Source: Dermatophilaceae bacterium (GTDB taxonomy: Bacteria; Actinomycetota; Actinomycetes; Actinomycetales; Dermatophilaceae). Taken from it: a stretch of DNA of 64,000 nt. The notes beneath the pieces are model-generated. The model did no database searches. It worked only from the letters and a program-made list of their open reading frames with translations, and had not been told where the DNA came from. The DNA is taken from positions 11,688-75,687 of the forward strand of contig JBHEPF010000127.1 in NCBI GenBank assembly GCA_046260445.1. Direction: 5' to 3'. Shown here in pieces: positions 2,390 to 41,676 of the stretch (position 1 is its first letter; every line of letters starts with the position of its first letter). A program made the position numbers and the translations under genes.

Positions 2390-2486
2390 GCTCTCAGCCT
2401 AGTCGGGCCGAAAGGACGCCCTCGCGCGCGCCGGCGCTGTGGATAACTTCGGGGTCCACCTGCCGGTTGCTGCCACGATCTGGGCC

Positions 2487-12804: not shown

Positions 12805-15323
12805 GACAGGCCGCGGATGCGGGCGTTCTCGGGGTCGAACAACGGCGTCGCGTCAGCCGCCGCAACCGTGACTGGGTAGAGCTCCTCCATGTACGAGACC
12901 GCGAGCTCGGTGCCGACGAGAGCCTGCTCCGGCGGGAGGAAGGCCATGAGGACATGCTTGCCCAGGCTGGGCGCCGACCCGGCGGTCGTGACGTAGGGGT
13001 GGCGGCCATGGCCATCGGTGAGGGTGTCGCCCGCACGGGTGAGGATGGGCTCCCCGCCGAGCATGTAGCGCTTGACGCCGCTGGCCGAGGTGTGGTCGTC
13101 GACGGTCAGGGAGCACAGGACGGTCTTCGCCGGCCGCTGCGCCTGGGCCATCACGGCGTCCTTGCCGATGAAGTCGTGGTCCTTCCACCTCGCCCGGGAC
13201 ATGCCGGTCTCCATGAGAGTGCGCTCGCTGTCGAGCTCGGCGCCATACGCGCGGTAGCCCTTCTCGAGGCGCCCCGTCGTGCCGTAGACGCCGATGCCGA
13301 CGGGCACCATGCCGAGCGGCGTGCCGACCTCCAGTATTCGGTTCCACAGTGCCGCCCCGGCCTCCATGGGGATGTAGAGCTCCCAGCCGTACTCACCCAC
13401 GTAGGAGATCCGAGAGGCCAGCACGTGCAAGGAGCCGACCTCGATCTCGCGACAGGTGCCGAAGGGGAAGCCCTGGTGCGAGAGGTCGGCGGTCGTGACG
13501 GCAGTGAGGATGTCGCGTGCGTTCGGGCCCCAGACGCCGACGGTCGTCCAGCTCGAGGTCAGGTCGACGACCACCGCACCACCGTCCTGTGGCATCCGGT
13601 CGATGAACCACTTCTTGTCCGCCATGCCGTGAGCGCCGCCGGTGACGACGCGGAAGCGGTCGTGAGCCAGGCGCATGATCGTGAGGTCCGAGCGGAAGCC
13701 GCCTCCCTCGTCCAGCACCGGGGTGTAGACGACCCGGCCGATGCGCACGTCGCACTGGGCGACGACGATCCGCTGCACGGTCTCGAGCGCCTCGGGCCCG
13801 ATGAGGTCGAAGATCGCGAAGGCCGACAGGTCGACCAGGCCGGCGGTCTCGCGCATCTGGAGGTGCTCGGCGTTGATGATGGGGGACCACCACCGGGCGT
13901 CCCATTCGTGCTCACGCACCATGCAGGCATCACCGAACTTCTCGACCAGGCCCGCATTCGACTCGTACCAGAACGGGCGCTCCCAGCCGGCGGTCTCGTA
14001 GAAGACCGCACCGAGCTCCTGCTCCGAGGTATGCATCGGCGCCAGACGGATGCCGCGGTCGCTCTCATACTGCTCGGCTGGGTGAACGATGCCGTAGGTC
14101 TTCTGGAACGACTCGGAGGTGCGCGCCCTGACGTGGGCCCTGGTCTTCTGGTGGGGGTGGAAGCGGGCGATGTCGGAGTGGCCGAGGTCGATCTCGGGGT
14201 TGCCGTGAGACATCCACTCGGCGACGGCGCGGCCCGTGCCCGGCCCTTCCTTGATCCAGACTGCCGCGGCCGACCACAGACCCTTGACCTCGGGGGTCTC
14301 GCCGAGGATCGGGTAGCCGTCGGGGGTGAGGGAGAGAAGGCCGTTGATGGCGTAGCGGATCTCGGCGCGTTCGTCGCCGAGCAGCTCGGGCATGAGCTCC
14401 AGAGCTTGCTCGAGCTGCGGGTCGAAGTCGTCCTCGGTGAACGGCAGCTCGGTCGGCGACAGCCTGCTCTGCTCGATCGAGGGGATGTCCTCGGGATCCC
14501 AGAGGATCGCGCGGTGCGCATACGACCCGACCTCCATGTCGGAACCATGCTGGCGCTCGTAGCAGAACGTGTCCATGTCGCGCACGATCGGGAAGCTGAT
14601 CTCGCCGGGACGATCGGCGAGCACCTCGCACGGGCCGACCGAGATCATCTGGTGCACGGCGGGAGTCAGCGGGATGTGAGCACCCGCCATTCGGGCGATC
14701 TTAGGGCTCCACACGCCGCAGGCGATGACGACCGTCTCGGCCTCGATGCGGCCCTGGTTGGTCTCGACGGCGCGGACACGACCGGCGAGGACCTCCATGC
14801 CGGTGACCTCGACGTTGGGCACGGTCGTGAGCGCGTCCTTCTCGATGGCGCGTTCGCGCATGATCGTGCCGGCGCGCAGGCTGTCCACCACGCCCACGGT
14901 GGGGAACCATGCGGCCCCGATGATGACGTCCGTGTCGAGGAAGGGAACCCTCTCGGCGACGTGCTCGGGGGTGACGAGCTCGGCGGGGATGCCCCAGGCC
15001 TTGGCACTGCTCATCCGGCGCCGCAGCTCCTCCATGCGCTCCTGCGTGCGGGCGACCTCGTAGCCGCCGGACTCGGTGAAGACGCCGAGCTCGACGTACT
15101 GGCGCACCGAGTCCATTGTGAGGTCAGCGAACTCGCGCGAGTGGTCGACGGGGAAGATGAAGTTGCTCGCGTGGCCGGTGGAGCCACCGGGGTTGGGCAG
15201 CGGGCCCTTGTCGAGCTGGACGATGTCGGTCCAGCCGAGTTCCGCGAGGTGGTGGACGAGCGAGTTCCCGACGATCCCGGCGCCGATGACGACACAACGG
15301 GCGGAGGGGGGGAGAGCGGCCAT
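12801..15323 (-). CDS. dimethylglycine dehydrogenase/oxidase family flavoenzyme (DAO domain plus GcvT-type folate-binding domain)
   Basis: 840 aa. The N-terminal FAD motif is VVIGAGIVGNSLVHHLA, and the C-terminal half is aminomethyltransferase-like. The size matches the ~830-aa Arthrobacter DMGO class. It is coupled to etfBA. Confidence 0.85.
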   Translation of the reverse strand: MAALPPSARCVVIGAGIVGNSLVHHLAELGWTDIVQLDKGPLPNPGGSTGHASNFIFPVDHSREFADLTMDSVRQYVELGVFTESGGYEVARTQERMEELRRRMSSAKAWGIPAELVTPEHVAERVPFLDTDVIIGAAWFPTVGVVDSLRAGTIMRERAIEKDALTTVPNVEVTGMEVLAGRVRAVETNQGRIEAETVVIACGVWSPKIARMAGAHIPLTPAVHQMISVGPCEVLADRPGEISFPIVRDMDTFCYERQHGSDMEVGSYAHRAILWDPEDIPSIEQSRLSPTELPFTEDDFDPQLEQALELMPELLGDERAEIRYAINGLLSLTPDGYPILGETPEVKGLWSAAAVWIKEGPGTGRAVAEWMSHGNPEIDLGHSDIARFHPHQKTRAHVRARTSESFQKTYGIVHPAEQYESDRGIRLAPMHTSEQELGAVFYETAGWERPFWYESNAGLVEKFGDACMVREHEWDARWWSPIINAEHLQMRETAGLVDLSAFAIFDLIGPEALETVQRIVVAQCDVRIGRVVYTPVLDEGGGFRSDLTIMRLAHDRFRVVTGGAHGMADKKWFIDRMPQDGGAVVVDLTSSWTTVGVWGPNARDILTAVTTADLSHQGFPFGTCREIEVGSLHVLASRISYVGEYGWELYIPMEAGAALWNRILEVGTPLGMVPVGIGVYGTTGRLEKGYRAYGAELDSERTLMETGMSRARWKDHDFIGKDAVMAQAQRPAKTVLCSLTVDDHTSASGVKRYMLGGEPILTRAGDTLTDGHGRHPYVTTAGSAPSLGKHVLMAFLPPEQALVGTELAVSYMEELYPVTVAAADATPLFDPENARIRGLS

Positions 15324-15565: not shown

Positions 15566-17599
15566 TCAGCCCCGTGTGAGGTTGCCCAGCCGGACGAACT
15601 GCAGGTGCTGCTCGTAGTTGTCGAGGCAGTCATGGATGACCTGGCCCTGGCTGTAGCCCATGACGTCGTAGTCCTGGCCCCCGGCCTCGAGGTGCACGAC
15701 GAGGCGCGCATGGCTGTCTCGCGCCTGGATCATCCGGCCGCCGTACGTCGGGACCGGGCCCTCGGTCAGCACCACCCGGTAGACGAACGGCTCGTCGCTC
15801 GACGTGGTGCGCAGCGTGACGGCAGGCTGCCCGCCACCCTCAGCGCCGAGGGGATCGACGCTGACCTCGGTCTCGACGCCGATGCGGTCCAGCTCGGCTG
15901 CCACCTCGTCGAGGGCCGGACGGATGACGGAGTCCAGGTGGGCCTGGGCGTCATCGCGGTCGACGAAGCTGGTCAGGCGGGCGAGGCGCAACTTCCATAG
16001 CGCGGCCGGATGCGGGTCGACCTCGGTGCCCCGAGCGGACAGGCGCGCGGGCATGGTGTGCGCACCGCTGTCGACCCGGCGGCCCTCTCGGCGAAGGGCC
16101 TTGAGCAAACCGAGCATGACGAGGACGAGGACGAAGGCGAAGGGCAGCCCGAAGATGATCGTGGCGTACTGAAGAGCGACGATGCCACCGACGATGAGCA
16201 TCGCGATGGTGAGCAGCCCGGTGACGGCAGCCCAGAGGATCCTCTGCCAGGCAGCGGCATCCTCGGACCCGGTGTCGAGGCGGCTGCACAGGTTCGCCAT
16301 GACGAGTGCTCCAGAGTCCGCCGAGGTGACGTAGAACAGGAGCCCGACGAACACGGCCAGGGTGATGACGACGTTCGCCGCGGGATAGCCGCTGAGGAGC
16401 TCGTAGAAGCCAAGGCCGGTGAAGTCCTGGGCGACCTCGCCGAACTCGGTGTCGCCTCCACGGATCCTCTCGATGGTGGCGTTGCCGAAGATCGAGACCC
16501 ACATGACGATGTAGAGGAACGGGATGATCATCGTGCCGGCCACGAACTGGCGAATGGTCCGGCCACGGGAGATCCGGGCGAGGAACAGGCCGACGAAGGA
16601 GGCCCAGGCCACCCACCAGGCCCAGAAGAAGAGCGTCCAGTAGCTCATCCACTCGGCGTTGTCGACGAAGGGGAAGGTCTCCATCGTCTTCGCCGGGAAG
16701 GTCCGCGCGAAGTCGCCGACGTTGGCGACGACGGCATTGAGGATGAAGCTGGTGTTGCCGGTCACGAGGATCCAGCCGGCGAGCCCGAGGGCCAGGAGGA
16801 CGTTGAGCTGGGAGAGGAAGCGGATGCCCTTGTCGACTCCGGTCGTCGCGGAGACCGCCGCCATGACGATCGCTAGCACGGCGAGGGCTATCTGGGCGCC
16901 GGTGCCCACCGGGACCCCGAAGAGCAGGTTGAGCCCGACGTTGAGGAAGACCACTCCGATGCCGAGCGAGGTCGCGACCCCGAAGATCGTCCCGAGGACC
17001 GCAGCGGTGTCCACCGCGTGCCCTACCGGGCCCTCGATGCGGCGGCCGAGGATCGGCTGCAGCGCGGAGCGGACCGCGAGGGGGAGGCCCATGCGGTGAC
17101 AGAAGTAGCCCAGCGCCATGCCCATCAGCGCATACATCCCCCATCCGGTGATCCCGTAGTGGAACAGGGTCCACACCGTGGCGTCGCGGGCGGCCTCGAC
17201 GGTCCCTGGCTCACCCACTGGTGGGGCGAGGTACTGGGACGCGGGCTCGACGACGGAGTAGAACATCACGTCGGTGCCGATGCCGGCGGCGAACAGCATC
17301 GAGGCCCACGCGAAGGTGGAGAACTCGGGGCGCGAGTGGTCCGGCCCGAGGCGGATGCGCCCGTAGCGGGAAATGCCCAGGGAGAGCACAAAGACGAGCA
17401 CCGCGGTCGCGAGGAGGACGTAGAACCAACCGAACCACTCGGTGACCCAGCCGGTGACCGTCCCCAGAGCGCTCTCGGCGGACGCGGGGGCGGCCAGCGC
17501 CCAGATGGCCAGCGTGAGCACGCCGACGAGCGAGGCGGCGAACACGGGCAGGCGCATCGGCGGTCCGGACACAATGCGGGCACGAATGTCGGTGCTCAT
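15566..17599 (-). CDS. betT: BCCT-family choline/glycine betaine transporter
   Basis: 677 aa, polytopic, with a BCCT signature region (WTLFFWAWWVAWASFVGLFLARISRGRTIRQF) and a long cytoplasmic C-terminal extension as in BetT. Confidence 0.9.
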   Translation of the reverse strand: MSTDIRARIVSGPPMRLPVFAASLVGVLTLAIWALAAPASAESALGTVTGWVTEWFGWFYVLLATAVLVFVLSLGISRYGRIRLGPDHSRPEFSTFAWASMLFAAGIGTDVMFYSVVEPASQYLAPPVGEPGTVEAARDATVWTLFHYGITGWGMYALMGMALGYFCHRMGLPLAVRSALQPILGRRIEGPVGHAVDTAAVLGTIFGVATSLGIGVVFLNVGLNLLFGVPVGTGAQIALAVLAIVMAAVSATTGVDKGIRFLSQLNVLLALGLAGWILVTGNTSFILNAVVANVGDFARTFPAKTMETFPFVDNAEWMSYWTLFFWAWWVAWASFVGLFLARISRGRTIRQFVAGTMIIPFLYIVMWVSIFGNATIERIRGGDTEFGEVAQDFTGLGFYELLSGYPAANVVITLAVFVGLLFYVTSADSGALVMANLCSRLDTGSEDAAAWQRILWAAVTGLLTIAMLIVGGIVALQYATIIFGLPFAFVLVLVMLGLLKALRREGRRVDSGAHTMPARLSARGTEVDPHPAALWKLRLARLTSFVDRDDAQAHLDSVIRPALDEVAAELDRIGVETEVSVDPLGAEGGGQPAVTLRTTSSDEPFVYRVVLTEGPVPTYGGRMIQARDSHARLVVHLEAGGQDYDVMGYSQGQVIHDCLDNYEQHLQFVRLGNLTRG

Positions 17600-17647: not shown

Positions 17648-19378
17648 TCAGGGGGCCTCGGTAGGGGCGGTGAGCGGACTGCCGGCCCGGTGGTCGTACC
17701 AGGGCACATCGGATGGCGGGAGGGGGGTGTTTCCAGCGATGAGGTCGGCCGCCTTCTCGGCGAGCATGACGACCGGGGCGTAGATGTTGCCGTTGGTGAC
17801 GTAGGGCATCGAGCTCGCGTCGACCACGCGTAGGCCCTGCGTGTCATGAACGCCCATCGTCAGGGGATCCAGAACGGAGAGGTCGTCGATCCCCATTCGC
17901 GCGGTACAGCTCGGGTGCAGCGCGGTCTCGGCGTCGGCGCGGACCCATTCGAGGATCTCCTCGTCGGTCTCGACGCTGGGCCCCGGGGAGATCTCGCCGT
18001 CGTTGAAGGGGTCCATCGCACTCTGGCCGAGGATGTGTCGTGCAGCCCGGATCGCCTCGACCCACTCGCTGCGGTCCTGTTCGGTCGACAGGTAGTTGAA
18101 ACTCAGCGCCGGCTGGACCGTCGGGTCCCGGCTCGTGATCTTGACCGTCCCCCTGGCGTCCGAGTACATGGGCCCGATGTGCACCTGGTAGCCGTGCCCC
18201 TTGATCGGGCTCGACCCGTCGTAGCGGATCGCGATCGGGAGGAAGTGGAACATCAGGTTCGGATAGTCGACATCCTCGTTGCCCCGGACGAAGCCACCGC
18301 CCTCGAAGTGGTTCGTCGCGCCGAGGCCCTTGCGGAAGAAGAGCCAGTCCGCGGCCAGCTTGGGACGGTTGTGGTACTTCAGGCCAGGGGCGATCGAGAC
18401 CGGGAGCTTGCTCGCGAACTGGATGTAAACCTCGAGGTGGTCCTGGAGATGTTCGCCGACGCCCGGGACGTGGGCCACCGGGGCGACGCCGAGCGCGCGG
18501 AGCTCGTCGGCGTTGCCGATCCCGGAGAGCTGGAGCAGCTGGGGGCTGTTGATCGCGCCACCGCTGAGGATGACCTCCCCCGCCCGGACGGTATGCCGTG
18601 TGCCGAGCTGGGTGTACTCCACGCCGACTGCCCTCGTCCCTTCGAAGAGGATCCGGGTCGTCATCGCGAGTGTCCGGACGTGCAGGTTGGGGCGGTCCGT
18701 CACAGGGTGGAGATAGGCCCGAGAGGCGGACAGCCGGCGCCCCCGGTGGATGTTCCTGTCGAACCTCGCGAAGCCCTCCTGACGGTAGCCGTTGACGTCA
18801 TCCGTCATCGGGTACCCGGCCTCGACGGCGGCGGCGAAGAACGCGCCGAAGAGCGGGTTGGTCGCCGGGCCGCGCTCGAGGATGAGCGGGCCGTCTCCGC
18901 CGCGCCAGCGGTCCGCCCCGGCGAGGCAGTTCTCCATCCGCTTGAAGTAGGGCAGGCAGTGGGCGAAGTCCCAGCTGTCCATGCCCGGGTCGGCGGCCCA
19001 GCGCTCGTAGTCCATGGGGTTGCCGCGCTGGAAGATCATCCCGTTGATCGAGCTCGAGCCGCCAAGGATCTTGCCACGGGCGTGGTATATGCGACGCCTG
19101 TTCATGTGGGGTTCGGGCTCGGACTCGTACTTCCAGTCGTAGAAGCGGCTCCCGATAGGGAACGGCAGGGCAGCCGGCATGGTGATGAACGGGTCGATCT
19201 TGAGATCGGACCGACCCGCCTCGAGGACGAGCACGTTCGTCGCCGAGTCGGCCGAGAGACGGTTCGCCAGGACGCACCCCGCGCTCCCACCGCCCACGAT
19301 CACGGTGTCCACGCGCTCTGGTGCTGCGCCCAGGGTGGTGTGCCCGAGCGCCTCGCTGACCCACCCCGGCATCCGCAT
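17648..19378 (-). CDS. betA: choline dehydrogenase (GMC oxidoreductase)
   Basis: Track ORF 17648..19504. The in-frame ATG at 19378 lies 2 nt after the betB stop. The FAD motif [17 protein letters not shown] and the GMC signatures are present. Confidence 0.9.
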
Positions 19379-19380: not shown

Positions 19381-20853
19381 TCACTCCCACCACCCCGAAG
19401 GAGAAGGTGTCGTGTTTCGCCACACGTGCTTGGTCTCCTGGTACTCCTCCAGGCCCAGCTCGCCGAGCTCGCGGCCGATACCCGACTGCTTGTAGCCCCC
19501 CCACTCAGCCTGAGCGACGTAGGGGTGGTAGTCGTTGATCCACACCGTGCCCATCCGCAGTCGGCGGGCGATCCGGTCGGCGCGCTCGGAGTCGTCGGTC
19601 CAGACGGCCCCGGCAAGGCCGAAGATCGTGTCGTTGGCGAGAGCGACCGCCTCGTCCTCGGTGGTGAACGTCTCCACGGTGAGCACCGGCCCGAAGGACT
19701 CCTCCTGGACGATGCTCATCGCCGGACTGCAGCGGTCGAACACCGTGGGCGGGAAGAAGAACCCGTCGTCCAGGCCAGCGCCGGTGGCTCGCTCACCACC
19801 GAGCCGGAGCCGGGCCCCGTCGGCGATCCCGGCGGCGACGTACGCCTCGACCTTGCGCAGGTGGTTCTCGCTCGTGAGCGAGCCGGTGTCGGCCTGCTCG
19901 TCGAACGGGCCGCCGAGCCGGATGCCGCGGGCGCGCTCGATGATCTCGTCGACGAAGCCCTCGGCGATCGACTCCTCGACGATGAGCCGGGCCCCGGCCG
20001 AGCACACCTGCCCGGAATGCAGGAACACCGCGGTCATCGCGTTGTCGAGGGCGGCCTCGCGACTGGCGTCGGCGAAGACGATGTTCGGGTTCTTCCCACC
20101 GAGCTCGAGGGCGACCCGCTTGACGGTCGGCGCAGCCGCGGCCATGAGGTGTCGCCCCACAGCGAGGCTTCCGGTGAAGGAGACGAGGTCGACCCTCGGG
20201 TCGCTGGAGAGGGGGCCACCGCAACCCGGACCGGTGCCGAGGACGAGGTTGCCGACACCGGCGGGGAGGCCGGCCTCGGCGAGGATCCGCACGAGGTGGA
20301 TCGTCGAGTGCGGGGTGATCTCGCTCGGCTTGAGGACGAACGTGTTGCCGGCGGCGAGGCAGGGGGCGACCTTCCAGCTCGCCTGGAGAGAGGGGTAGTT
20401 CCACGGGGTGATGAGGGCGCAGACTCCGATCGGCTCCTTGACGATCGTGCTCTGGACCCCCTCGCGCCCGACATCGACGACGCGACCCCCCGTGGGCGCC
20501 GTGGACGCGACAGCGGCGTAGTGGCGGAAGGCCGAGACGACGTCGGCGACGTCGTACTCCGCCTCGACGAACCGCTTCCCGGTGTCGAGCGCCTCAGCCC
20601 GCGCGATATCCTTGGTGTCACGTTCCAGCAGGTCGGCGGTGCGGTCGAGGAGGGCCCCCCGGTCGGCCATCGCGGTCCTGGGCCAGGAACCACTGTCGAA
20701 CGCCGACCGCGCCGCGCTGATCGCGGCGAGGGTGTCGATGTCGGTGGCCTCCTGGACGGTGCCGACGGGGGTGCCGTCGGCCGGGCACGTGATCGAGCGC
20801 GTGCCGCCGCCCGCCGCGGCTACCCATCGGCCATCGATGAACAGCTTCGTCAC
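19381..20853 (-). CDS. betB: betaine-aldehyde dehydrogenase
   Basis: 490-aa ALDH with FTGS, ELGGKNP and the catalytic Cys in [10 protein letters not shown]. It has a GTG start with AGGAGG 6 nt upstream and lies immediately upstream of betA. Confidence 0.9.
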
Positions 20854-21000: not shown

Positions 21001-21783
21001 TCAGGTGACGAAGGGGCGGTGGGCAATGCGGGCGCTGATCTCGGCGGCGGCCGTGCGAAGGAGCGGGACGATCTCGTCGACGCGGGCCTGCTCGAAACGG
21101 AACGACGGGCCGGAGACGCTTACCGACGCGACGATGTCGCCGTGGGTGTCGCGCACCGGGGCCGCGACGGCGGTCAGGCCGATGTCGAGCTCGTCGGCGG
21201 CGAGTGCGTAGCCCTTGGCTCGGACTCCCGCGAGCTGCGCGTCGAGGACGGCACGGTCGGTGATGGTCGACGGGGTGAAGGCGACGAGCTCGCCGAGGAG
21301 ATGGGCCAGCTCGGGGTCGTCGCGTTCACTGACGAGCACCTTGCCGTTGCTCGTGGCGTGGATCGGGATGTGCTGGCCGACCCAGTTGTAGGACGACAGG
21401 GTCGAGGCTCCGTCCACCTGGTCCACGTAGAGTGCCGCTCCGCCCGATAGGACGACGAGGTTGACGGTCTCGCCGGTCTCGGAGGCGAGGTGCCGGCATA
21501 CGGTCCGGGCCTGCTGGGCCAAGTCAAGCCGGGCGCTGCTCGCGGCGGCGAGCTTGAGCACCCCGACGCCGAGCCGGTAGTGTCCCCGCTCCTCGATCTG
21601 TTCGACGAGCTGCCGTCGCTCGAGCGCGGCGACGAGGCGGCTCGCCGTCGACTTGTGCACCCCGAGGGTGCGGGCCAGCTGCGTCACCCCCGCGGCCCCG
21701 TGAACGGCGAGTAGCTCGAGGATCGTCACGGCGCGGTCGACGGACTGCACCGTTGCAGACTCGGCCCGAGCATTGGTGCGCAT
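21001..21783 (-). CDS. IclR-family transcriptional regulator
   Basis: 260 aa with an N-terminal wHTH (SVDRAVTILELLAVHGAAGVTQLARTLGVHKSTASRLVAALE) and a C-terminal IclR effector domain. Confidence 0.85.
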   Translation of the reverse strand: MRTNARAESATVQSVDRAVTILELLAVHGAAGVTQLARTLGVHKSTASRLVAALERRQLVEQIEERGHYRLGVGVLKLAAASSARLDLAQQARTVCRHLASETGETVNLVVLSGGAALYVDQVDGASTLSSYNWVGQHIPIHATSNGKVLVSERDDPELAHLLGELVAFTPSTITDRAVLDAQLAGVRAKGYALAADELDIGLTAVAAPVRDTHGDIVASVSVSGPSFRFEQARVDEIVPLLRTAAAEISARIAHRPFVT

Positions 21784-21823: not shown

Positions 21824-23263
21824 TCAGTCGCCGAGCTCCCGGCGGCGCCGGATCACGAAGTCCTCGAGTCCGGCGAGGACGCCGTCGTCGATGGTGGGCT
21901 GCTCGTAGTCCTCGAGCCGCTTGCGCCAGATGGCCGCGGCGCGCGTGGCCGTGTCCTGGGCGCCGTTGCGCGTCCAGCGCTCGTAGTTCTCGGAGGAGTT
22001 CAGGAAGGGGCGGTAGAAGCAGGTGCGGAAGCGCTCCATCGTGTGCGCCGAGCCCAGGAAGTGGCCACCGTGACCGACCTCCTGGTGGGCGTCGAAGGCG
22101 AGCGAGCCAGCGTCGATCTCGAGTGGGGTGAACTCGTGCTGGAGCATCTCGACGATCTGGCAGTCGATGACGAACTTCTCGAGCCCCGCAACCAGGCCGC
22201 CCTCGAGCCACCCTGCTGTGTGCATGACCCAGTTCGTGCCCGCGAGAAACGTCGGCAGCAGGGTCATCAGTGCCTCGTATCCGGCTTGGGCGTCCGGCAC
22301 CTGTGAGGAGGTGAGGCCGCCGCCGGTGCGGAACGGCAGGCCGAACCGGCGCGCGATCTGGCCGGTGCAGAGCAGTCCGATGCCGGACTCCGGCGTGCCG
22401 AAGGTGGGGGAGCCGGACTGCATGTCGATGTTCGAGAGGAACGACCCGAAGATCACCGGGCACCCGGGGCGGATGAGCTGGGCCAGGGCGATGCCCGACA
22501 ATGCCTCGGCGATCTGCTGCACCAACGCTGCCGGGATGGTCACGGGCGACATCGCGCCCATGAGGATGAACGGCGTCACGACGACCGGCTGGTTGGCCGC
22601 GCAGTACTCGAAGAGGGCGTCGAGCATACGGTCGTCCCAGCGGAGGGGCGAGTTGCAGTTGATGAGGCTGATCGATGTCGGCGTGGCCTCGATCGCGTCG
22701 CGGCCGCCGAACACGATCTCGGACATCGCGATGACGTCGCGGGCGTTGGGCCCGGAGACGACGTTGCCCATGAACACCTTGTCGGTGAGCGTCATCAGAG
22801 CGAGCGTCATGTCGAGGTGGCGTGAGTCGAGCGGAGTGTCGTTGGGTTCGCAGACGACGCCGCCGGCGGAGTCCAGGACCGAGAAGGACTGGGAGAGGCG
22901 CGCGAAGTTGCGGTAGTCCTCCATGGTGCCGTCCCGGCGGATCTCGCCATCGCGGACGAACGGAGGGCCGTAGACGGCACCGAAGGCCATTGAGTCGCCG
23001 CCGATGTGGATGCTGCGCTCGGCGTTGCGCGCCTGGACGTCGAACTCGCGGGGCGCCTTGGCCACCTGCTCGAGGACGAACTCAGGGTCGAGGAACACCG
23101 TCTTCTCCTCGACCCGCTGGCCCGCGTCGCGGAAGAGGGCCACGGCGCGGTCACTCATGAACTCGACCCCGATCTCGGTGACGAGTCGACGCCAGCCGGC
23201 GTCCAGCTGCTCGAGGGCGTCCGCGGAGAGGATCTCGTAGCGCGGCATGCGGTTGGTGAACAT
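21824..23263 (-). CDS. MttB-superfamily (trimethylamine methyltransferase family) non-pyrrolysine quaternary-amine:corrinoid methyltransferase; glycine betaine is the likely substrate
   Basis: 479-aa uninterrupted ORF with no in-frame TAG. It shows MttB-like sequence throughout (YEILSADALEQLDAGWRRLVTEIGVEF ... NCNSPLRWD ... GGLTSS). The context includes a corrinoid protein, a methyl-THF methyltransferase and a RamA-type activase. Confidence 0.88.
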   Translation of the reverse strand: MFTNRMPRYEILSADALEQLDAGWRRLVTEIGVEFMSDRAVALFRDAGQRVEEKTVFLDPEFVLEQVAKAPREFDVQARNAERSIHIGGDSMAFGAVYGPPFVRDGEIRRDGTMEDYRNFARLSQSFSVLDSAGGVVCEPNDTPLDSRHLDMTLALMTLTDKVFMGNVVSGPNARDVIAMSEIVFGGRDAIEATPTSISLINCNSPLRWDDRMLDALFEYCAANQPVVVTPFILMGAMSPVTIPAALVQQIAEALSGIALAQLIRPGCPVIFGSFLSNIDMQSGSPTFGTPESGIGLLCTGQIARRFGLPFRTGGGLTSSQVPDAQAGYEALMTLLPTFLAGTNWVMHTAGWLEGGLVAGLEKFVIDCQIVEMLQHEFTPLEIDAGSLAFDAHQEVGHGGHFLGSAHTMERFRTCFYRPFLNSSENYERWTRNGAQDTATRAAAIWRKRLEDYEQPTIDDGVLAGLEDFVIRRRRELGD

Positions 23264-23318
23264 CGGCGGGCCTTTCGGAGCGATCGACGTTGACGGTGAG
23301 ACGGGTCACATCCTAGCC

Positions 23319-23350
23319 TCATCATGTGGGACTGTGGTTCCACATCATGA
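23319..23350. promoter_or_regulatory. candidate operator in the mttB / iclR-corrinoid divergent promoter
   Basis: TCATCATGTGG (23319-23329) and CCACATCATGA (23340-23350) are inverted repeats matching at 10 of 11 positions. The inner core TGTGGTTCCACA (23333-23344) has 5-bp perfect arms. Confidence 0.35.
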
Positions 23351-24171
23351 GCAGCCGCGCGCGACCTCGCGACTCGGCCAACATCCAGGAGAGGACAGCC
23401 CGCGTGAGCACCCCCACAGTGAGTACCGGCACCCAGTCCATCGACCGGGCTGCCGACCTGCTCGCCCGTGTCGTGCGCGCGCAGGAGGCGGTGACCTTCA
23501 GCGAACTGGCCGTGGCGACCGGGCTGGCGCGCTCGACGACCTCCCGTCTACTGGCCGCCCTCGAGCGCGCGGAACTCCTCGCCCGTGACGACCATGGTCG
23601 TTGGACCCCCGGTGCGCTTTTCGAGCACTACGCCACGCAGCGCTCCGATGACGAAGTGCTGATCCAGGCCGCCGATCCCATGATGCGGGCGCTGGGGGAG
23701 GCCACCGGCGAGACCGTGAACCTCGGGGTCAGTCGCCGCGGTACCGTCGTGCAGGTCGCCCAGGTCGACTCGGTCTACTTCCTCGGCTCGCGTGACTGGG
23801 TCGGCACAGAAGTGCCGGCGCACTGCTCCTCCCTGGGCAAGGTTCTCCTCGCGCACGGCGCGCTCCGACTGCCCTCCGGACCGCTCGAAGCACTGACCCC
23901 GTCGTCGGTCACCACCGGCGCGGCCCTGCAAGCCCAGCTGCCGGGCATCCGCGCCGACGGCTACGCGACGACCGTCGACGAGCTCGAGCCCGGTCTGACG
24001 GGGGTGGCGGCACCGGTCCGCCGCAATGGCGCGGTCGTGGCCGCGCTCGGCGTTTCGGGGCCGACCTCCCGCCTCGCGGTGGACCTGCAGTCCACCGGAA
24101 CCCTTGTCGCCGCCCACGCCCGGGCGCTGTCGACCCGTCTCGACCACCACCCGCAGGAAGGCGCAGCATGA
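23347..24171 (+). CDS. IclR-family transcriptional regulator, first gene of the corrinoid operon
   Basis: Track ORF 23326..24171. Possible starts are ATG 23347 or GTG 23404; the latter would clear the inverted repeat. The wHTH is SIDRAADLLARVV...FSELAVATGLARSTTSRLLAALE. Its stop overlaps the next start (ATGA at 24168). Confidence 0.8.
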   Translation: MSSRARPRDSANIQERTARVSTPTVSTGTQSIDRAADLLARVVRAQEAVTFSELAVATGLARSTTSRLLAALERAELLARDDHGRWTPGALFEHYATQRSDDEVLIQAADPMMRALGEATGETVNLGVSRRGTVVQVAQVDSVYFLGSRDWVGTEVPAHCSSLGKVLLAHGALRLPSGPLEALTPSSVTTGAALQAQLPGIRADGYATTVDELEPGLTGVAAPVRRNGAVVAALGVSGPTSRLAVDLQSTGTLVAAHARALSTRLDHHPQEGAA

Positions 24172-24833
24172 CTCCCGACGAGATCCTTCAGGGGTTGTAC
24201 GACGAGACGCTCGTCGGCAACGCACCCGCGGTGCTCGACCTCACCCACCAGGCACTGAACCAGGGCATGGCGCCGGGCAGCCTGCTGTTCGACGCACTGA
24301 TCCCCGCCCTGGAGGAGGTCGGCGCTCGCTTCGAGCGCGGCGACTTCTTCGTGCCCGAGATGCTCATCGCGGGCCGCGCCATGGCCGGCTCAATGGCAGT
24401 ACTGCGACCGCTCCTCGCCGACACCGGGGTCCAGACGATCGGGCGCTTCCTCATGGGGACCGTCAAGGGCGACGTCCACGACATCGGAAAGAACCTCGTC
24501 AACATCATGCTCGAGGGGGCCGGCTTCGAGGTGATCGACCTCGGGGTGCAGGTGGCGCCGGAGAGGTTCGTCGCGGCCATTGAGGAGCACCAGCCCGACA
24601 TCGTCGGCTTCTCAGCGTTCCTCACCACGACCATGCCGATGTTCAAGGCGAACATCAACGCCCTCGAGAAGGCAGGTCTACGCGACTCCGTCATCGTCAT
24701 GGTGGGCGGGGCCCCGGTCACGCAGGAGTACGCCGACGCGGTCGGCGCCGACGGGTATGCCTCCGATGCCTCCGCCACCGTCAAGCGGGCCAAGGCTCTG
24801 CTCGAGGCCCGCCGCACCAGGGTCCTGGCGTGA
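24168..24833 (+). CDS. cobalamin-binding corrinoid protein (MtgC/MtbC-like)
   Basis: 221 aa with a B12-binding cap domain plus a Rossmann domain. It carries the DxHxxG motif GDVHDIGKN, the SxL motif (SAFLTT) and GG (MVGGAP). Confidence 0.9.
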   Translation: MTPDEILQGLYDETLVGNAPAVLDLTHQALNQGMAPGSLLFDALIPALEEVGARFERGDFFVPEMLIAGRAMAGSMAVLRPLLADTGVQTIGRFLMGTVKGDVHDIGKNLVNIMLEGAGFEVIDLGVQVAPERFVAAIEEHQPDIVGFSAFLTTTMPMFKANINALEKAGLRDSVIVMVGGAPVTQEYADAVGADGYASDASATVKRAKALLEARRTRVLA

Positions 24834-25732
24834 GCGCCCCCCTGCGTCGCACCGTCCTGCGTTCGGCGACCAAGGAGGTCGTCATTGCTGCAGACCAGCC
24901 GTTCTGCGTCATCGGTGAGCGGATCAACCCGACCGGTCGGCCCGTGCTCCAGAAGGCACTGCGCGAGGGCGACCTGTCGATCATCGCCAAGGACGTCGAC
25001 TCCCAGGTCGCTGGCGGCGCCGACGTCCTCGACATCAACATGGGTGTGCCCCTCACCGACGAGGTCGCGCTGCTCGTCAGGGCGATCCAGCTGGTGCAGC
25101 AGGTGACCGACCTGCCCGTCTGCATCGACTCCTCGGTGGTCGAGGCGCTGGAGGCCGGGCTCGCCGCTTACCAGGGCCGGGCCCTGGTCAATTCCGTGAC
25201 GGCCGAGGACGAACGGCTCGCCGCCATCCTCCCCCTCGTCAAGAAGTACGACGCCGCGGTCGTCGCGCTGCCGAACGACGAGGACGAGATTCCCATGGAG
25301 CACGAGAAGCGACTCCTGCTCACCGAGAAGATCGTCCAGGTCGCCACGCGGGAGTACGGCATCGCCATCGACGACATCGTCATCGATCCACTTGCGATGC
25401 CCATCGGTGCCGACTCCACGGTGGGCCGCGAGACCCTCGCGACCATCCGTGGCATCCGCGAGCGGTGGGGCCTCAACACGACGTGCGGCGCGTCCAACGT
25501 CAGCTTCGGGATGCCGGGCCGCCACGCCATCAACGGCGCCTGGCTGCCGCTCGCGATGTCGGCCGGCCTCACCAGCGCCATCATGGACGCCCGCACTCCG
25601 CACGTCGTCGACGCGGTGCGTGCCGCCGACCTGCTCCTCGGCAATGACGAATGGGGCTCGGCGTGGATCGCGACCCACCGGGCGCGACAGGCGGCGCAGG
25701 CGGCCCCGACCGCTGCGGCTGGACCTGCGTGA
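24830..25732 (+). CDS. methylcorrinoid:tetrahydrofolate methyltransferase (pterin-binding domain, MtgA/AcsE/MetH-module-like)
   Basis: 300 aa with VIGERINPTGRPVLQKALREGD, GADVLDINMG and ALVNSV, as in the pterin-binding (DHPS-like) family. There is a GTGA start/stop overlap with the corrinoid protein gene. Confidence 0.85.
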   Translation: MSAPLRRTVLRSATKEVVIAADQPFCVIGERINPTGRPVLQKALREGDLSIIAKDVDSQVAGGADVLDINMGVPLTDEVALLVRAIQLVQQVTDLPVCIDSSVVEALEAGLAAYQGRALVNSVTAEDERLAAILPLVKKYDAAVVALPNDEDEIPMEHEKRLLLTEKIVQVATREYGIAIDDIVIDPLAMPIGADSTVGRETLATIRGIRERWGLNTTCGASNVSFGMPGRHAINGAWLPLAMSAGLTSAIMDARTPHVVDAVRAADLLLGNDEWGSAWIATHRARQAAQAAPTAAAGPA

Positions 25733-25854
25733 GCGGGTCACGCGGCCCGGGATCGCCGTTCGATGATGTCGTCGACGGGCTGCGGCGCGAGGGTCTGCTC
25801 GAGCCGGCCTCGTCGAGGTCCGTCGCACGGGACGTTCGCGAGGGCGCCGGGAGG

Positions 25855-27699
25855 GTGCAACTGAGCTTCACGCCATCCAACCGCTCGGTGCGGGTGCCGC
25901 CGGGGGTGTCTGTCTTCGACGCCGCCTCCTGGAACGGGATCGCCATCGACTCCACGTGTGGGGGCCACGGCACCTGTCGCAAGTGCCTCGTCCGTGTGAC
26001 GACAGGCTCGGCGCCGGTGACGAGGCACGACCTCAAGACCTTCTCCGACGACCAGATCGGTGACGGTTGGCGGCTCGCGTGCCTCGTGAAGGCCGCCCAC
26101 GACCTCAGTCTCGAGGTTCCGCCGCTCGTCACCCGGCCCAAGGCGTCCACCGTCGGCATTGGCCGTCAGGTCATCCTGCGCCCCGGGGTGCAGAAGCGCT
26201 ACGTCGAGCTCGCCGAACCGACCCTCGCGGACCAGCGCACCGACCTGCGGCGCCTGCGTGACGCGGTGGAGGACCTCACCCTCGACCCCGACCTCCACGC
26301 CCTACGGCGCCTGCCGAACGTGTTGCGGGACAGCGACTTCAGGGTGACCGCGGTCGTGGTCCACGAGACTCTCATCGATGTCGAGCCGGGCGACACCACG
26401 GGTCGCCGGCACGCGATCGCGTTCGACCTCGGGACGACCACCGTCGTCGCCACCCTGCTCGACCTCGAGACCGGGACACCGGTCGCTGTGGCCTCGATGC
26501 TCAACAAGCAGCAGCCCTTCGGTGGCGATGTCATCACCAGGATCAGCGCGACGATGTTGGACCCCGAAGCGCTGGGTCGGCTCACCTCGCTGGCCCGCGA
26601 GACCCTCGCCGAGCTCGCGGCGGAGGTGCTCAAGGAGGGCGGGATCGCCCCGAGTGAGGTCTATGAGGTCGCGCTCGCCGGCAACGCGACGATGACGGCC
26701 CTGTTACTCGGTGTCGACCCCGAGCCCCTCGGCGTCGCCCCCTTCATCCAGGTGACTGCCGACTGGCCCGTCCTGAAGGCCACCGAGCTGGGTCTGACCC
26801 TGCACCCGGGGGCACGGGCCACGGTCTTCCCCGCGCTCGGCGCCTACGTCGGCGGCGACATCGTCGCGGGCATGCTCGCGAGCGGGCTGGATCGCGATAA
26901 GCGGGTTCGCCTGTTCATCGACGTCGGCACCAACTGCGAGATCGCCCTGAGCGACGGCGAACGCATCGTCACGACCGCAGCGCCGGCCGGTCCCGCGTTC
27001 GAGGGCGGCGCCATCCGCTGCGGCATGCGTGCCGCCGACGGCGCCATTGAGGTCATCAGGCTAGACCCCGCTGCCGAGGACGACGCCATCTCGGTGGTAC
27101 TCGGCGTCATCGGTGACGTCGAGCCCCGGGGGCTGTGTGGTTCCGGCCTCGTCGACGCCGTGTCCGAGCTGGTCCGGGTCGGCCTGCTCGACGCGTCAGG
27201 TCGGTTCGTCCCGGAGGACGATGCTGCTCGTGACGTCCCGCTGCTCGCATCCCGACTCACGACCGTGGGGCAGGGCGAGCGGGTGTTCGTGCTGCACCGG
27301 CCCACTCCGGACTCACCTGCAGCGGAGTCTGTGTACCTGTCCCAGAGGGACGTTCGCGAGCTCCAGTTCGCCAAGGCGGCGATATCCACGGGGTGGACCC
27401 TGCTGCTGGAGGAGCTCGGGATGGCCGCGCGCGACGTCCAGCAAGTCCTGCTCGCAGGGTCCTTCGGCTCCTACCTCTCGCCCGCCTCGGCCGTGCGGAT
27501 CGGGCTGGTCCCCGAACTGCCGGTGCTGCGGATCGTCTCCGCGGGCAACGTCGCGGGGGAGGGGGCCAAAATGGTCCTCCTGTCGTCCCGCGAACGGGCT
27601 GGTGCCGACGCGCTGCTCGAGGAGGTGCGCTATGTCGAACTCTCCGACCGCCCCGATTTCAACGACCGGTTCATCGACCAGCTCGCGTTCCCGGTGTGA
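25855..27699 (+). CDS. RamA/RACo-type corrinoid reductive activase (2Fe-2S ferredoxin domain plus ASKHA ATPase, DUF4445)
   Basis: Track ORF 25651..27699. The GTG at 25855 gives VQLSFTPSNRSVRVPPGVSVFDAASWNGIAIDSTCGGHGTCRKCLVRV, a family-typical N-terminus. An alternative GTG at 25729 overlaps the upstream stop (GTGA). The body is ASKHA-like (AFDLGTTTVVATLLD, IDVGTNCEI). Confidence 0.85.
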   Translation: MQLSFTPSNRSVRVPPGVSVFDAASWNGIAIDSTCGGHGTCRKCLVRVTTGSAPVTRHDLKTFSDDQIGDGWRLACLVKAAHDLSLEVPPLVTRPKASTVGIGRQVILRPGVQKRYVELAEPTLADQRTDLRRLRDAVEDLTLDPDLHALRRLPNVLRDSDFRVTAVVVHETLIDVEPGDTTGRRHAIAFDLGTTTVVATLLDLETGTPVAVASMLNKQQPFGGDVITRISATMLDPEALGRLTSLARETLAELAAEVLKEGGIAPSEVYEVALAGNATMTALLLGVDPEPLGVAPFIQVTADWPVLKATELGLTLHPGARATVFPALGAYVGGDIVAGMLASGLDRDKRVRLFIDVGTNCEIALSDGERIVTTAAPAGPAFEGGAIRCGMRAADGAIEVIRLDPAAEDDAISVVLGVIGDVEPRGLCGSGLVDAVSELVRVGLLDASGRFVPEDDAARDVPLLASRLTTVGQGERVFVLHRPTPDSPAAESVYLSQRDVRELQFAKAAISTGWTLLLEELGMAARDVQQVLLAGSFGSYLSPASAVRIGLVPELPVLRIVSAGNVAGEGAKMVLLSSRERAGADALLEEVRYVELSDRPDFNDRFIDQLAFPV

Positions 27700-27724
27700 T
27701 GTCGGAGACGCCGCGCGCGCGTCG

Positions 27725-28315
27725 GTGGCACTCGTCGCGTGCGGTGCAATCGCCCAGCCGGCCGCCGACAGTGCAGCGCGACACGGGTGGGCTGTGGACG
27801 TCCACCCCTTGCCGCCCCTCCTGCATAACCGTCCGGAGCGGATCGCGGGCGAGGTCGAGCACCTCGTCCGTGAGTTGAGCGGACGCTACGACCGGGTCGC
27901 GGTCGGGTATGCCGACTGCGGCACCTACGGAGCGCTGGATGCGCTGTGTGAGCGGCTCGGAGTGCAGCGGCTGCCCGGTCTGCATTGCTATGACCTCTTC
28001 GCCGGAACGACCATCGTTGAAGAGCTGGCCGCCGACGAGCCGGGCACCTACCTACTCACCGACTTCCTGGTGAGGTCGTTCTCCCGGACCGTGGTCCACG
28101 AGCTCGGTCTCGACCGGCACCCAGAGCTGCGCGATGAATACTTCCGCCACTACACCCGCATCGTGTGGCTCGTCCAGAGCACCGACCCCCAGGAACAGGC
28201 CGAGCTGAGGCTGCTCGCACAGGGCGCCGCCGACCGCGTCGGACTGCCCTTGCAGGTGCAGCACGCGGGCCCTGGCGGCCTCGACCGCGCGCTCGCCGAC
28301 CTCCTCGGCGACTAG
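27725..28315 (+). CDS. DUF1638-domain protein (function unknown, recurrent partner of corrinoid methyltransferase systems)
   Basis: This is the tail of track ORF 27113..28315. The GTG at 27725 gives VALVACGAIAQP..., then VGYADCGTYGALDALCE and YLLTDFLVRSF. The upstream part of the ORF overlaps ramA out of frame. Confidence 0.65.
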   Translation: MALVACGAIAQPAADSAARHGWAVDVHPLPPLLHNRPERIAGEVEHLVRELSGRYDRVAVGYADCGTYGALDALCERLGVQRLPGLHCYDLFAGTTIVEELAADEPGTYLLTDFLVRSFSRTVVHELGLDRHPELRDEYFRHYTRIVWLVQSTDPQEQAELRLLAQGAADRVGLPLQVQHAGPGGLDRALADLLGD

Positions 28316-28403
28316 CGCGCGGCGAGGACCTCGGACATCGCTCGCACGGGATCGGGGGCAGAGCCGCAGCAGGCCCGACGATGTCGATCCCGGTGGGCCC
28401 GTC

Positions 28404-29267
28404 TCACCGTGGTCGGCTTCGGGTGGCGACCGCCTCGTCGAGCATCCGTCGGCGCCAGGCCTCGATGACCTCGACCTGGTTGAACGTGAAGACGTGGAGG
28501 CCCTCGACGCCCAATGTCTCGTTCGTCGCCAGGGCCGCGACGCGGTGGACGAACCGGTCGGTGGAGAAGCCCGGACTGGCGATCCGGGCGAAGACCGACC
28601 CCTGCTTGCGCAGGAAACGGAGCGATTCTCCGACCCCGATCTTCGTCGCCATGCCGAGCAGCTTCGTGCGCTCGACGGGGCCCGGGAGGCCGACGAGGAT
28701 AGGGAGGGTGACCCCGCGGCGCCGCACCCGCTCGGCCCACGTGGCGAGGCGCTCGACGTCGAAGGTCATGTTCGAGACGATGTGCGTCGCGTACGGGCGC
28801 TTGTCCCACATCGCCTGCACCGTGACGTCGTCGTCGATCGTCGGGTGTGACTCGGGGTAGCCCGTGATGCCCACCTGGGTGAAGTGGTGGCCCATCTCGT
28901 CGAGGCCGCGCAGGAGGTCGAGGGCGCCGTGGTACGGACCGGCCGGCGGATCGGCGTCGCCGGCGGGCACGAAGACCGCCGAGACGTCGTGCTCCTTCAG
29001 CCGCGAGACGATGTCGGCGAGCTCCTCGCGGCCCGACACCATCCTGGCCGCTAGGTGTGGCACGACGGTGTAGCCGGAGTCGGCGAGCGAGGTGGCCAGG
29101 TCCAGGGTGGCTGCCAGGCCTTTGCTGGGGGCGGCGGTCACCGTGAGCGGCACTGATGAGGGGACGTGCTCTCGGACCGTATCGGCGATCGTGGCCGTGG
29201 GCATGACCTCGTATCGCGCACCCTTCAGCAGGCGGGTGAGGGCGACGGTTGGCAACTCGTTGCTCAT
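28404..29267 (-). CDS. metF: 5,10-methylenetetrahydrofolate reductase
   Basis: Track ORF 28404..29537. The in-frame ATG at 29267 gives MSNELPTVALTRLLKGARYEVMP, followed by an MTHFR-like sequence (GITGYPESHP, TFDVERL, GLPGPV). Confidence 0.85.
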   Translation of the reverse strand: MSNELPTVALTRLLKGARYEVMPTATIADTVREHVPSSVPLTVTAAPSKGLAATLDLATSLADSGYTVVPHLAARMVSGREELADIVSRLKEHDVSAVFVPAGDADPPAGPYHGALDLLRGLDEMGHHFTQVGITGYPESHPTIDDDVTVQAMWDKRPYATHIVSNMTFDVERLATWAERVRRRGVTLPILVGLPGPVERTKLLGMATKIGVGESLRFLRKQGSVFARIASPGFSTDRFVHRVAALATNETLGVEGLHVFTFNQVEVIEAWRRRMLDEAVATRSRPR

Positions 29268-29752
29268 CGTGCAACCTGTCTCGTCATGCGCACCGGATGG
29301 CGCACAGCCTAGGGGTCGTCGGTCGTCGGCGCTAGCGTCTGGGCTCATGAGTCCTGGGCGGGCCCTGACGATGCCGGAGCCGAGCAGCCCGCGCTGCCCC
29401 ATTCGGGCGTGCCGCACCGCCGTGTGCCGCGAGCCCGAGCACGCTCCTGCTCCTGGGTGGCCGGTCCGCGGCCCCACCGAATCCGGTATCGCCACCGTCC
29501 CCGCCCTCCCCGCTCGACAACGCGGTGCACAACGCACCGTGCCGCCGGTGGGGTGTCGTGTGGCCAGATCGCCGCGTAGGCCGGACCTATCCGAGCCGCC
29601 GACCAGAGTCGGAACGGCCGGGCAGGATTTTTCTCAGTGACCCACGCACGTGAGCGAGCGAAGCTTTGGCCCGCAACCAGCGCAACCGGACCGACCTCGC
29701 ACAGCTCGAGTCCATCAGGGAGCTTGCACCCGGTCCCGTCGAGGGATCGGCG

Positions 29753-32376: not shown

Positions 32377-32402
32377 TCGGTGGGACGTGATGGGATCGAG
32401 TC

Positions 32403-41599: not shown

Positions 41600-41676
41600 G
41601 GCGGTGACCCTAATGCACCGTGCCGGGCTGCGACCCATCGGTCGCTGTCGGACCCGGGTGAGAGACTGACGTCGTC

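Follow-up and report, generated by a model that had tools for sequence, protein, structure and literature searches.

A probable actinobacterial glycine betaine demethylase of the cobalamin-dependent MtgBCD type within a choline-to-glycine catabolic locus

The MtgB/MtgC/MtgA system of Desulfitobacterium hafniense, reportedly described by Ticak et al. in 2014, carries a methyl group from glycine betaine to a corrinoid protein and from there to tetrahydrofolate (THF), in a host which is a strict anaerobe. A module that would follow the same logic is encoded in the DNA of a Dermatophilaceae bacterium of the Actinomycetota (GenBank assembly GCA_046260445.1, contig JBHEPF010000127.1, positions 11,688 to 75,687 of the forward strand; this whole stretch of 64,000 nucleotides is referred to as the window, and coordinates are counted from its first letter). 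The genes in question lie at positions 21824-29267, and we argue that they probably represent an actinobacterial cobalamin-dependent glycine betaine demethylase MtgBCD, placed within a choline-to-glycine catabolic locus.

The closest described systems come from aerobic Alphaproteobacteria. By proteomics and by knocking out mtgC and mtgD, Mausz et al. (PNAS 2025, PMC12478193) demonstrated that MtgC and MtgD of the aerobic bacterium Ruegeria pomeroyi are needed for betaine catabolism and methionine synthesis. Growth of this strain on betaine induced PF06253 proteins, RamA, DUF1638, MetF2 and SdaA, and betaine is demethylated by MtgBCD acting with RamA, DUF1638 and MetF2 (PMC12478193). The same authors proposed MtgBCDE also for a gene cluster of Sinorhizobium meliloti and for many marine Proteobacteria, and Actinomycetota contributed only 5% of the mtgC reads in their study (PMC12478193). 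Phaeobacter inhibens has both the MtgB and the GbcAB routes; without mtgB1 it grows less well on betaine in cobalt-replete conditions, and an mtgB1 gbcAB double mutant does not grow on this compound at all (bioRxiv 10.64898/2025.12.19.695462). A first-pass annotation of the window had regarded the route as established in strict anaerobes alone and as still lacking proof in aerobes, and the results obtained with R. pomeroyi (PMC12478193) and P. inhibens (bioRxiv 10.64898/2025.12.19.695462) overturn this view. In the literature that we searched, no paper links MttB-family genes to Nocardioides, Intrasporangiaceae or other Actinobacteria.

The G+C content of the window is ~70%, and genuine genes were chosen by third-position GC and then checked against Pfam and NCBIfam. 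All of the module genes listed in the first-pass annotation are present, at or near the places where it had put them: the 479-amino-acid (aa) MttB-superfamily protein, the divergent genes for an IclR regulator, a His-on corrinoid protein, a pterin methyltransferase, a RACo-type activase (RACo, reductive activator of corrinoid proteins) and a DUF1638 protein, and the convergent metF. The module comprises:
21824..23263, minus strand: mtgB-like gene of a non-pyrrolysine MttB-superfamily substrate:corrinoid methyltransferase, 479 aa (PF06253, 624 bits)
23318..23351, no strand: candidate IclR operator, an inverted repeat in the mttB/iclR2 divergent intergenic region
23404..24171, plus strand: iclR2, IclR-family regulator, first gene of the divergent operon, 255 aa (HTH_IclR and IclR_C)
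24168..24833, plus strand: mtgC-like gene of a corrinoid protein, 221 aa, base-off/His-on DxHxxG (PF02607 and PF02310)
24830..25732, plus strand: mtgD-like gene of a methyl-corrinoid:tetrahydrofolate methyltransferase of the MeTr/MetH pterin-module type, 300 aa (PF00809)
25729..27699, plus strand: RACo-type reductive activator of corrinoid proteins, 656 aa (Fer2, RACo_linker, Raco_middle and RACo_C_ter)
27725..28315, plus strand (start at GTG 27725 or ATG 27632): DUF1638 protein, proposed corrinoid-reactivation partner (PF07796, 75 bits)
28404..29267, minus strand: metF2, homolog of S6MTHFR-type methylenetetrahydrofolate reductase (MTHFR), 287 aa (PF02219, 43 bits)

The MttB homolog spans positions 25-500 of the 500 positions of the PF06253 profile, and its gene has no in-frame TAG, as had been noted in the first-pass annotation. 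Leu317 aligns with the pyrrolysine (Pyl, X) of Methanosarcina barkeri MttB (7XCL), a position at which D. hafniense MtgB has Leu as well, and the score against the Pyl-type model TIGR02369 is 277 bits at a cutoff of 525; by its sequence, the protein belongs to the non-pyrrolysine branch of the MttB superfamily. Its best match in the PDB is S. meliloti 4YYC (430 bits), with D. hafniense MtgB (DhMtgB; 2QNE/9YCE) at 391 bits and Pyl-MttB at 137 bits. The corresponding identities are 45% (4YYC), 40% (DhMtgB, over the full length) and 25-28% (Pyl-MttB), and a homolog encoded by a Paracoccus plasmid is 48% identical. The dN/dS values calculated with close relatives (0.07-0.10) indicate that the gene is under purifying selection.

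The corrinoid protein is composed of B12-binding_2 and B12-binding domains and carries the expected motif GDVHDIGKN at residues 101-109 (DxHxxG starts at residue 102). It is of the same family as the corrinoid protein of D. hafniense; its best NCBIfam model is MtgC_2 (200 bits, below the cutoff of 370), and the nearest PDB entries are 1Y80 and MttC 7XCN. The pterin methyltransferase scores 317 bits with PRK07535, above the cutoff of 259, and is nearest to 2YCI, 1Q7M and 1F6Y, i.e. to MeTr and MetH pterin modules. In the PDB copy searched, which is assumed to include the MtgA structures of PMC7154762, it matched no D. hafniense MtgA chain even at E<=5, and the label “MtgA” is for this reason wrong. 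Thus, of the MtgB/MtgC/MtgA architecture suggested in the first-pass annotation, the MtgB- and MtgC-like parts stand, whereas the third part has no sequence relation to DhMtgA and, judged by similarity, is the counterpart of “MtgD”, the MetH-like protein of Mausz et al.

The open reading frame (ORF) of the activase opens at 25651, and the likely start GTG 25729, which overlaps the mtgD stop by 4 nt, gives a protein of ortholog-like length (656 aa). The predicted [2Fe-2S] motif CGGHGTCRKC was found at residues 77-86, with Cys77, 83, 86 and 118 all present. The homology with RACo of Carboxydothermus hydrogenoformans (3ZYY)/AcsV is full-length (317 bits with 3ZYY) and includes the N-terminal [2Fe-2S] ferredoxin domain and the ASKHA ATPase; the methylamine RamA model TIGR04270 gives 118 bits at a cutoff of 500. 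A RACo-type activase with a [2Fe-2S] domain distinguishes this module from the system of the anaerobe D. hafniense. RACo of C. hydrogenoformans serves CoFeSP of the Wood-Ljungdahl pathway, also in an anaerobe, whereas the client in the window would be the MtgC-like protein, with DUF1638 as an extra partner; a role of DUF1638 proteins in corrinoid reactivation was proposed in PMC12478193.

The metF2 gene, convergent with the rest of the module, starts with the ATG at 29267, exactly where the first-pass annotation had ended the region. Its best solved relative is 7XG9 (97 bits over residues 5-233; other MTHFRs give <=34 bits), although the similarity is moderate and the C-terminal ~50 residues lie outside the alignment. 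This entry, 7XG9, shows S6MTHFR from Sphingobium lignivorans SYK-6, the first representative of a methyl-THF-oxidising group of MTHFRs (Commun Biol 2025, PMC11868366). This group uses methyl-THF released by THF-dependent demethylases, including the corrinoid-dependent CmuAB; MttB-type systems do not appear in that survey, whereas the partner of MetF2 in the window is of the MttB type (PMC11868366). MetF2 is predicted by this similarity to oxidise methyl-THF, which would fit the catabolic direction of flux in the module. Another ORF, 28312-29274 on the minus strand (320 codons), overlaps metF2; it was rejected as a MetF candidate, having no family match and the wrong frame by third-position GC. 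This spurious frame is an artefact of the high G+C content, and naive ORF callers could take it for MetF.

All six parts of the MtgBCD system (MtgB, MtgC, MtgD, RamA/RACo, DUF1638 and MetF) were therefore matched by their domains within 21824-29267, in agreement with the prediction of a complete corrinoid-dependent methyl-transfer module, and it is close to certain that the module transfers a methyl group from a methylated onium compound to THF by way of a corrinoid. It shares with MtgBCD(E) of aerobic Alphaproteobacteria a PF06253 MtgB, a small His-on corrinoid MtgC, a MetH-like MtgD, a RamA/RACo activase, DUF1638 and a dedicated MetF, as well as a presumably oxygen-respiring host and ties to bet, dimethylglycine/sarcosine, SdaA and THF-C1 (one-carbon) genes. 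The comparison with S. meliloti is the most direct: 4YYC is 100% identical (475/475 aligned residues) to an MttB-family protein of this species, whose gene is clustered with genes of a cobalamin-binding protein, DUF1638, an MTHFR, a methyl-THF:cobalamin methyltransferase and an ASKHA protein, with bmt/MtgE 6 kb away. The identities between the window and this cluster are 43% (MtgC), 52% (MtgD), 32% (RACo) and 43% (DUF1638). A plasmid of Paracoccus methylovorus also has an MtgBCD-type module like that of the window; in the plasmid collection as a whole, the MttB homologs are below 48% identity and are all from Proteobacteria.

There are also differences. Unlike the alphaproteobacterial systems, that of the window belongs to the Actinomycetota, and its genes are gathered in a single compact divergent cluster that includes two IclR regulators. 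MetF alone is not of a type homologous to that of the S. meliloti and Paracoccus modules: the S6MTHFR-like MetF2 has 287 aa and is not orthologous to their MTHFR (363-388 aa), which is accompanied by a separate C-terminal-domain protein. In addition, unlike in alphaproteobacterial MtgBCDE, there is no mtgE in the window, so a coupling to methionine synthesis is not evident, and an Rfam scan of the window detected one tRNA only and no cobalamin riboswitch.

The identity of the methyl donor is indicated above all by gene context, which bears most weight for the substrate call. On the mttB strand, downstream of mttB, the genes iclR1, betB, betA, betT, the gene of a protein resembling dimethylglycine dehydrogenase (DMGDH) and etfBA (electron transfer flavoprotein, ETF) form a contiguous run; the formyl-THF deformylase gene purU lies farther away:
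21001..21783, minus strand: iclR1, second IclR-family regulator, between mttB and betB (Pfam)
19381..20853, minus strand: betB-like gene of betaine-aldehyde dehydrogenase (PF00171; TIGR01804 577 bits, below the cutoff of 669)
17648..19378, minus strand: betA, choline dehydrogenase (TIGR01810 807 bits, above the cutoff of 732)
15566..17599, minus strand: betT-type BCCT choline/betaine transporter (PRK09928 818 bits, above the cutoff of 695)
12801..15323, minus strand: dimethylglycine/sarcosine dehydrogenase-like flavoprotein (DAO, FAO_M, GCV_T and GCV_T_C; no equivalog model above its cutoff)
11078..12804, minus strand: etfB (12031-12804) and etfA (11078-12034), electron acceptor for the dehydrogenase (family match)
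5011..5865, plus strand: purU, formyl-THF deformylase, C1 exit (TIGR00655 334 bits, above the cutoff of 286)
57174-58775: Pyr_redox_2 protein (Pfam)

The BetA, BetB, DMGDH-like and ETF proteins on which the first-pass annotation had drawn were thus recovered, and a Pyr_redox_2 protein is present as well. The conversion of betaine to dimethylglycine is the sole step missing in the window between BetAB and the DMGDH-like enzyme, and the window ORFs that were scanned include neither a Rieske GbcA-like nor a BHMT-like gene. An aerobic lifestyle of the host is supported by the window only indirectly, through ETF, choline dehydrogenase and the Pyr_redox_2 protein. The genera of the closest relatives are mainly aerobic.

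Relatives of the MttB homolog were found in at least 586 species-representative genomes, and synteny was examined for the best 80 of them, in regions of ±10 kb around the mttB homolog (some of these loci are incomplete). The 80 proteins are 78-94% identical to that of the window and come from Oryzobacter, Phycicoccus, Nostocoides, Agilicoccus, Kineosphaera, Nocardioides and Marmoricola. Intrasporangiaceae provide the closest homologs, in keeping with an actinobacterial host of this family, and the nearest relative is Oryzobacter telluris (94% aa identity of MttB; 85.6% nt identity of the core module). At this distance, the window must derive from a species related to O. telluris but distinct from it. 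The neighbours of the mttB homolog were retained as follows:
IclR2, beside the mttB homolog: 80/80 loci
MtgC: 77/80 loci
MtgD: 76/80 loci
RACo: 74/80 loci
DUF1638: 65/80 loci
MetF2: 62/80 loci
BetB: 62/80 loci
BetA: 60/80 loci
OpuA-type ATPase (betaine ABC transporter): 60/80 loci
PurU: 58/80 loci

In some loci, those of the Intrasporangiaceae type, DMGDH/ETF or L-serine ammonia-lyase genes adjoin the module. The gene of L-serine ammonia-lyase (TIGR00720, 673 bits) directly follows mttB in several relatives (locus L001, 11457-12845; locus L005, 11457-12842), which matches the induction of SdaA on betaine in R. pomeroyi; the window lacks this gene and has the run iclR1-betB-betA-betT-DMGDH-etfBA at this position instead.

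The residues of the substrate pocket provide a second line of evidence. In D. hafniense MtgB, the residues that bind betaine were identified by mutagenesis and the ligand-bound structure 9YCE as Y97, R312, H348 and F356, with the F356L substitution raising the Km ~800-fold (Picking et al. JBC 2026, PMC13080624). After correction for the 2-residue offset of the PDB chain, the window equivalents of Y97, R312 and H348 are Y98, R312 and H348, and these are invariant in all 120 of 120 close homologs. The position of Y97 differs among MttB clades (S, Q, G, A, L or T). The Eubacterium limosum enzymes MtpB, MtcB, MtyB and MthB (proline betaine, carnitine, gamma-butyrobetaine and phosphocholine methyltransferases), which feed one corrinoid protein and THF, are likewise non-Pyl members of the superfamily and keep the R312 equivalent, but they do not have the aromatic pair that includes Y97 (PMC13080624), whereas Y97 is invariant in the window clade. 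The synteny of bet, opu, DMGDH and purU, together with the conservation of Y97, R312 and H348, makes the demethylation of glycine betaine to dimethylglycine, as had been proposed in the first-pass annotation, the best-supported reaction of the module.

Several observations nevertheless weigh against this assignment. The position of F356, the cation-pi residue of DhMtgB, is occupied by Gly356 in the window protein, with Trp at the 352-equivalent; S. meliloti 4YYC has the same residue pattern at the betaine-site positions. The motif HxxGWLEGG that replaces F356 occurs in many MttB clades and is therefore not betaine-specific, and Trp352 as a betaine-diagnostic stand-in for F356 was rejected owing to this wide distribution of HxxGWLE. 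The residue test is thus favourable but incomplete. Furthermore, the nearest neighbours in 50% clusters (P0121 and P0122; 59-60% identity) have Ser or Gln at the Y97 position, which means that specificity shifts over short distances in this family. In a neighbour-joining tree of 99 MttB-family sequences, anchored only by DhMtgB, S. meliloti 4YYC, the Paracoccus plasmid homolog and Pyl-MttB, the window protein did not fall in the DhMtgB clade; its clade stands apart from DhMtgB, within a large group that includes 4YYC. Because the window clade is separate from DhMtgB and the protein is approximately equidistant (40-48%) from every anchor with functional evidence, the phylogeny assigns no substrate. 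A DMGDH gene is found within 10 kb in only 8 of the 80 loci, and the literature searched contains no experiment on this route in any actinobacterium.

As a separate observation, P0121 and P0122 resemble sister paralog clades with a different substrate.

These reservations lend some weight to the view that the same machinery acts on another quaternary amine or onium donor (proline betaine, carnitine, gamma-butyrobetaine, (phospho)choline or DMSP (dimethylsulfoniopropionate)), with the bet genes merely lying nearby. The characterised MttB-family enzymes span at least five substrates and cannot be distinguished by family membership, F356 is not kept, and the window protein is placed outside the DhMtgB clade. 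Moreover, a carnitine 3-dehydrogenase gene is found close to the P. methylovorus module, and genomes with an MtgBCD-type system often have several PF06253 paralogs lacking an assigned substrate. We still consider a different donor unlikely, since the linkage to betB/betA, the betaine ABC transporter and purU is kept across two actinobacterial orders, betaine to dimethylglycine is the only gap between BetAB and the DMGDH-like enzyme, and the invariant Y97 of the window clade belongs to an aromatic pair not kept in MtcB, MtpB, MthB and MtyB (PMC13080624). The name “trimethylamine methyltransferase family protein”, given in databases to close homologs, together with PF06253 membership, might suggest a trimethylamine:corrinoid methyltransferase. 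This reading is effectively refuted by the absence of an in-frame UAG, by Leu at the pyrrolysine position and by the low similarity to M. barkeri MttB and to the Pyl-type equivalog model (values given above); non-Pyl D. hafniense MtgB does not use trimethylamine either (PMC13080624).

It is also conceivable, though rather improbable, that the proteins form a split betaine-fed methionine synthase, in which a methyl group from betaine, or from methyl-THF through a reversed MtgD, would pass via the corrinoid to homocysteine, as in MtgBCDE of Rhodobacterales. A gene of a PF02574 homocysteine S-methyltransferase is indeed inserted between those of DUF1638 and MetF2 in 10 of the best 80 loci, which are without exception of the Intrasporangiaceae type and include the nearest relatives (locus L001, 4118-4957; locus L005, 2894-3706); its product is 44% identical to S. 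meliloti Bmt/MtgE. However, no PF02574 homolog was found by tblastn in the 64-kb window, where only ~90 bp (28316-28403) separate DUF1638 from MetF2, nor was such a gene found in the Nocardioides-type loci. The link to an MTHFR of the methyl-THF-oxidising type and to purU points to C1 disposal, and the cluster lies within a catabolic operon array with betA, betB, DMGDH and ETF. The presence of the PF02574 gene in some relatives and its absence from the window suggest that members of this lineage differ in whether the module is coupled to methionine synthesis; relatives carrying the gene may have a dual betaine/methionine role.

If the module is a betaine demethylase of the MtgBCD type, its operation can be envisaged as follows. 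BetT would import choline, which BetA and BetB would oxidise to glycine betaine. The MttB-family protein would bind betaine in its TIM-barrel pocket, with R312 and H348 holding the carboxylate and Y98 the trimethylammonium group. One of the betaine methyl groups would then be passed by this enzyme to Co(I) of the His-on corrinoid protein, and dimethylglycine would be set free. The MeTr/MetH-like methyltransferase would hand this methyl group to THF, and the S6MTHFR-type MetF would oxidise methyl-THF to methylene-THF, so that the carbon could leave through the folate C1 pathway and PurU, while the DMGDH-like enzyme and EtfAB would take off the next methyl group(s). The [2Fe-2S]/ASKHA RACo protein and DUF1638 would re-reduce corrinoid oxidised to Co(II), a function expected to matter more in an oxygen-respiring cell. 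IclR2 would probably repress the divergent promoters through a conserved palindrome.

This palindrome, a near-perfect inverted repeat with two 15-nt arms (CTCATCATGTGGGAC-N4-GTTCCACATCATGAG), is located at 23318-23351, between mttB and iclR2; a conserved -10-like element, GGCTAGGAT, comes after it on the mttB strand. The repeat occurs only once in the window, where none would be expected by chance, and a relaxed form of it occurs upstream of the mttB homolog in 63 of the 80 related loci versus 12 of 5609 background windows. The repeat is kept from Intrasporangiaceae to Nocardioides, i.e. in two actinobacterial orders, while the flanking DNA diverges, which indicates that it is likely to be an IclR operator overlapping the promoter; the candidate pairing of regulator and operator is drawn from this conservation and from gene position. 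A scan of the window for consensus promoters and terminators gave nothing exceeding shuffled expectation. The ORF of iclR2 opens at 23326, and the likely start GTG 23404 gives 255 aa, as in the orthologs. The other regulator gene, iclR1 (21001-21783), which was not mentioned in the first-pass annotation, travels with betB/betA in related loci.

The locus represents a known pathway in a new lineage, without a new kind of biochemistry. What appears to be new is (i) the actinobacterial lineage and the breadth of distribution, (ii) the one-locus organisation with two IclR regulators, (iii) the conserved candidate IclR operator, (iv) the pairing with an S6MTHFR-type MetF, and (v) the MtgE-like gene of some relatives, which is absent from the window. 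More tentatively, and with slightly less than even confidence, we propose that in Nocardioidaceae and Intrasporangiaceae a self-contained MtgBCD-RACo-DUF1638 system might provide the main betaine-to-dimethylglycine step, joined to an S6MTHFR-type oxidase and an IclR repressor/palindrome, independent of methionine synthase, with Trp352 instead of Phe356 as the second aromatic contact of the betaine pocket, and that it might make choline/betaine catabolism cobalamin-dependent.

Such relatives are common in soil and activated sludge. Should the proposal hold, oxygen-compatible B12-dependent demethylation of betaine would reach from marine Proteobacteria to abundant Actinomycetota of soil and wastewater, and a requirement for B12/cobalt would be added to actinobacterial choline and betaine turnover. 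The compact locus, which would unite regulator, operator, enzyme, corrinoid protein, activase and methyl-THF oxidase, would be easier to reconstitute than the scattered Ruegeria genes. In turn, relatives with and without the MtgE-like gene offer a natural test of the coupling between betaine demethylation and methionine synthesis outside Rhodobacterales.

Some further features of the locus and its relatives deserve mention. The MttB and MtgC orthologs of Micrococcales (Intrasporangiaceae) and Propionibacteriales (Nocardioidaceae) are 80-88% identical, and the adjacent IclR, MetF2 and DUF1638 only 50-65% identical between these families. The higher conservation of MttB and MtgC than of their neighbours might result either from a very strong constraint on catalytic partners or from lateral transfer between families. 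The purU gene, likewise absent from the first-pass annotation, adjoins iclR1 in most related loci but is ~15 kb from it in the window, and ParA-like, ADH, DEAD helicase, MiaE-like and etfAB/DMGDH genes lie between the two; this displacement indicates a local rearrangement of the catabolic island.

The remainder of the window contains housekeeping genes. Two long ORFs on the minus strand, 50943-52418 and 52452-53702 (491 and 416 aa), are without a Pfam match, and the latter overlaps the start of a UPF0182 gene. Two neighbouring large genes of UvrD-helicase/PD-(D/E)XK nucleases, AdnA/AdnB-like, are located at 32391-39007 and are followed by genes of an APH-family kinase, a NUDIX/NADH pyrophosphatase and a UvrD/HRDC helicase (41662-43782), forming a DNA-repair neighbourhood unrelated to the demethylase module. 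Finally, an ORF at 2403-3404, beside a glycerol kinase gene, encodes an AbiEi_4 antitoxin-type helix-turn-helix domain and may be a solitary toxin-antitoxin/abortive-infection regulator.

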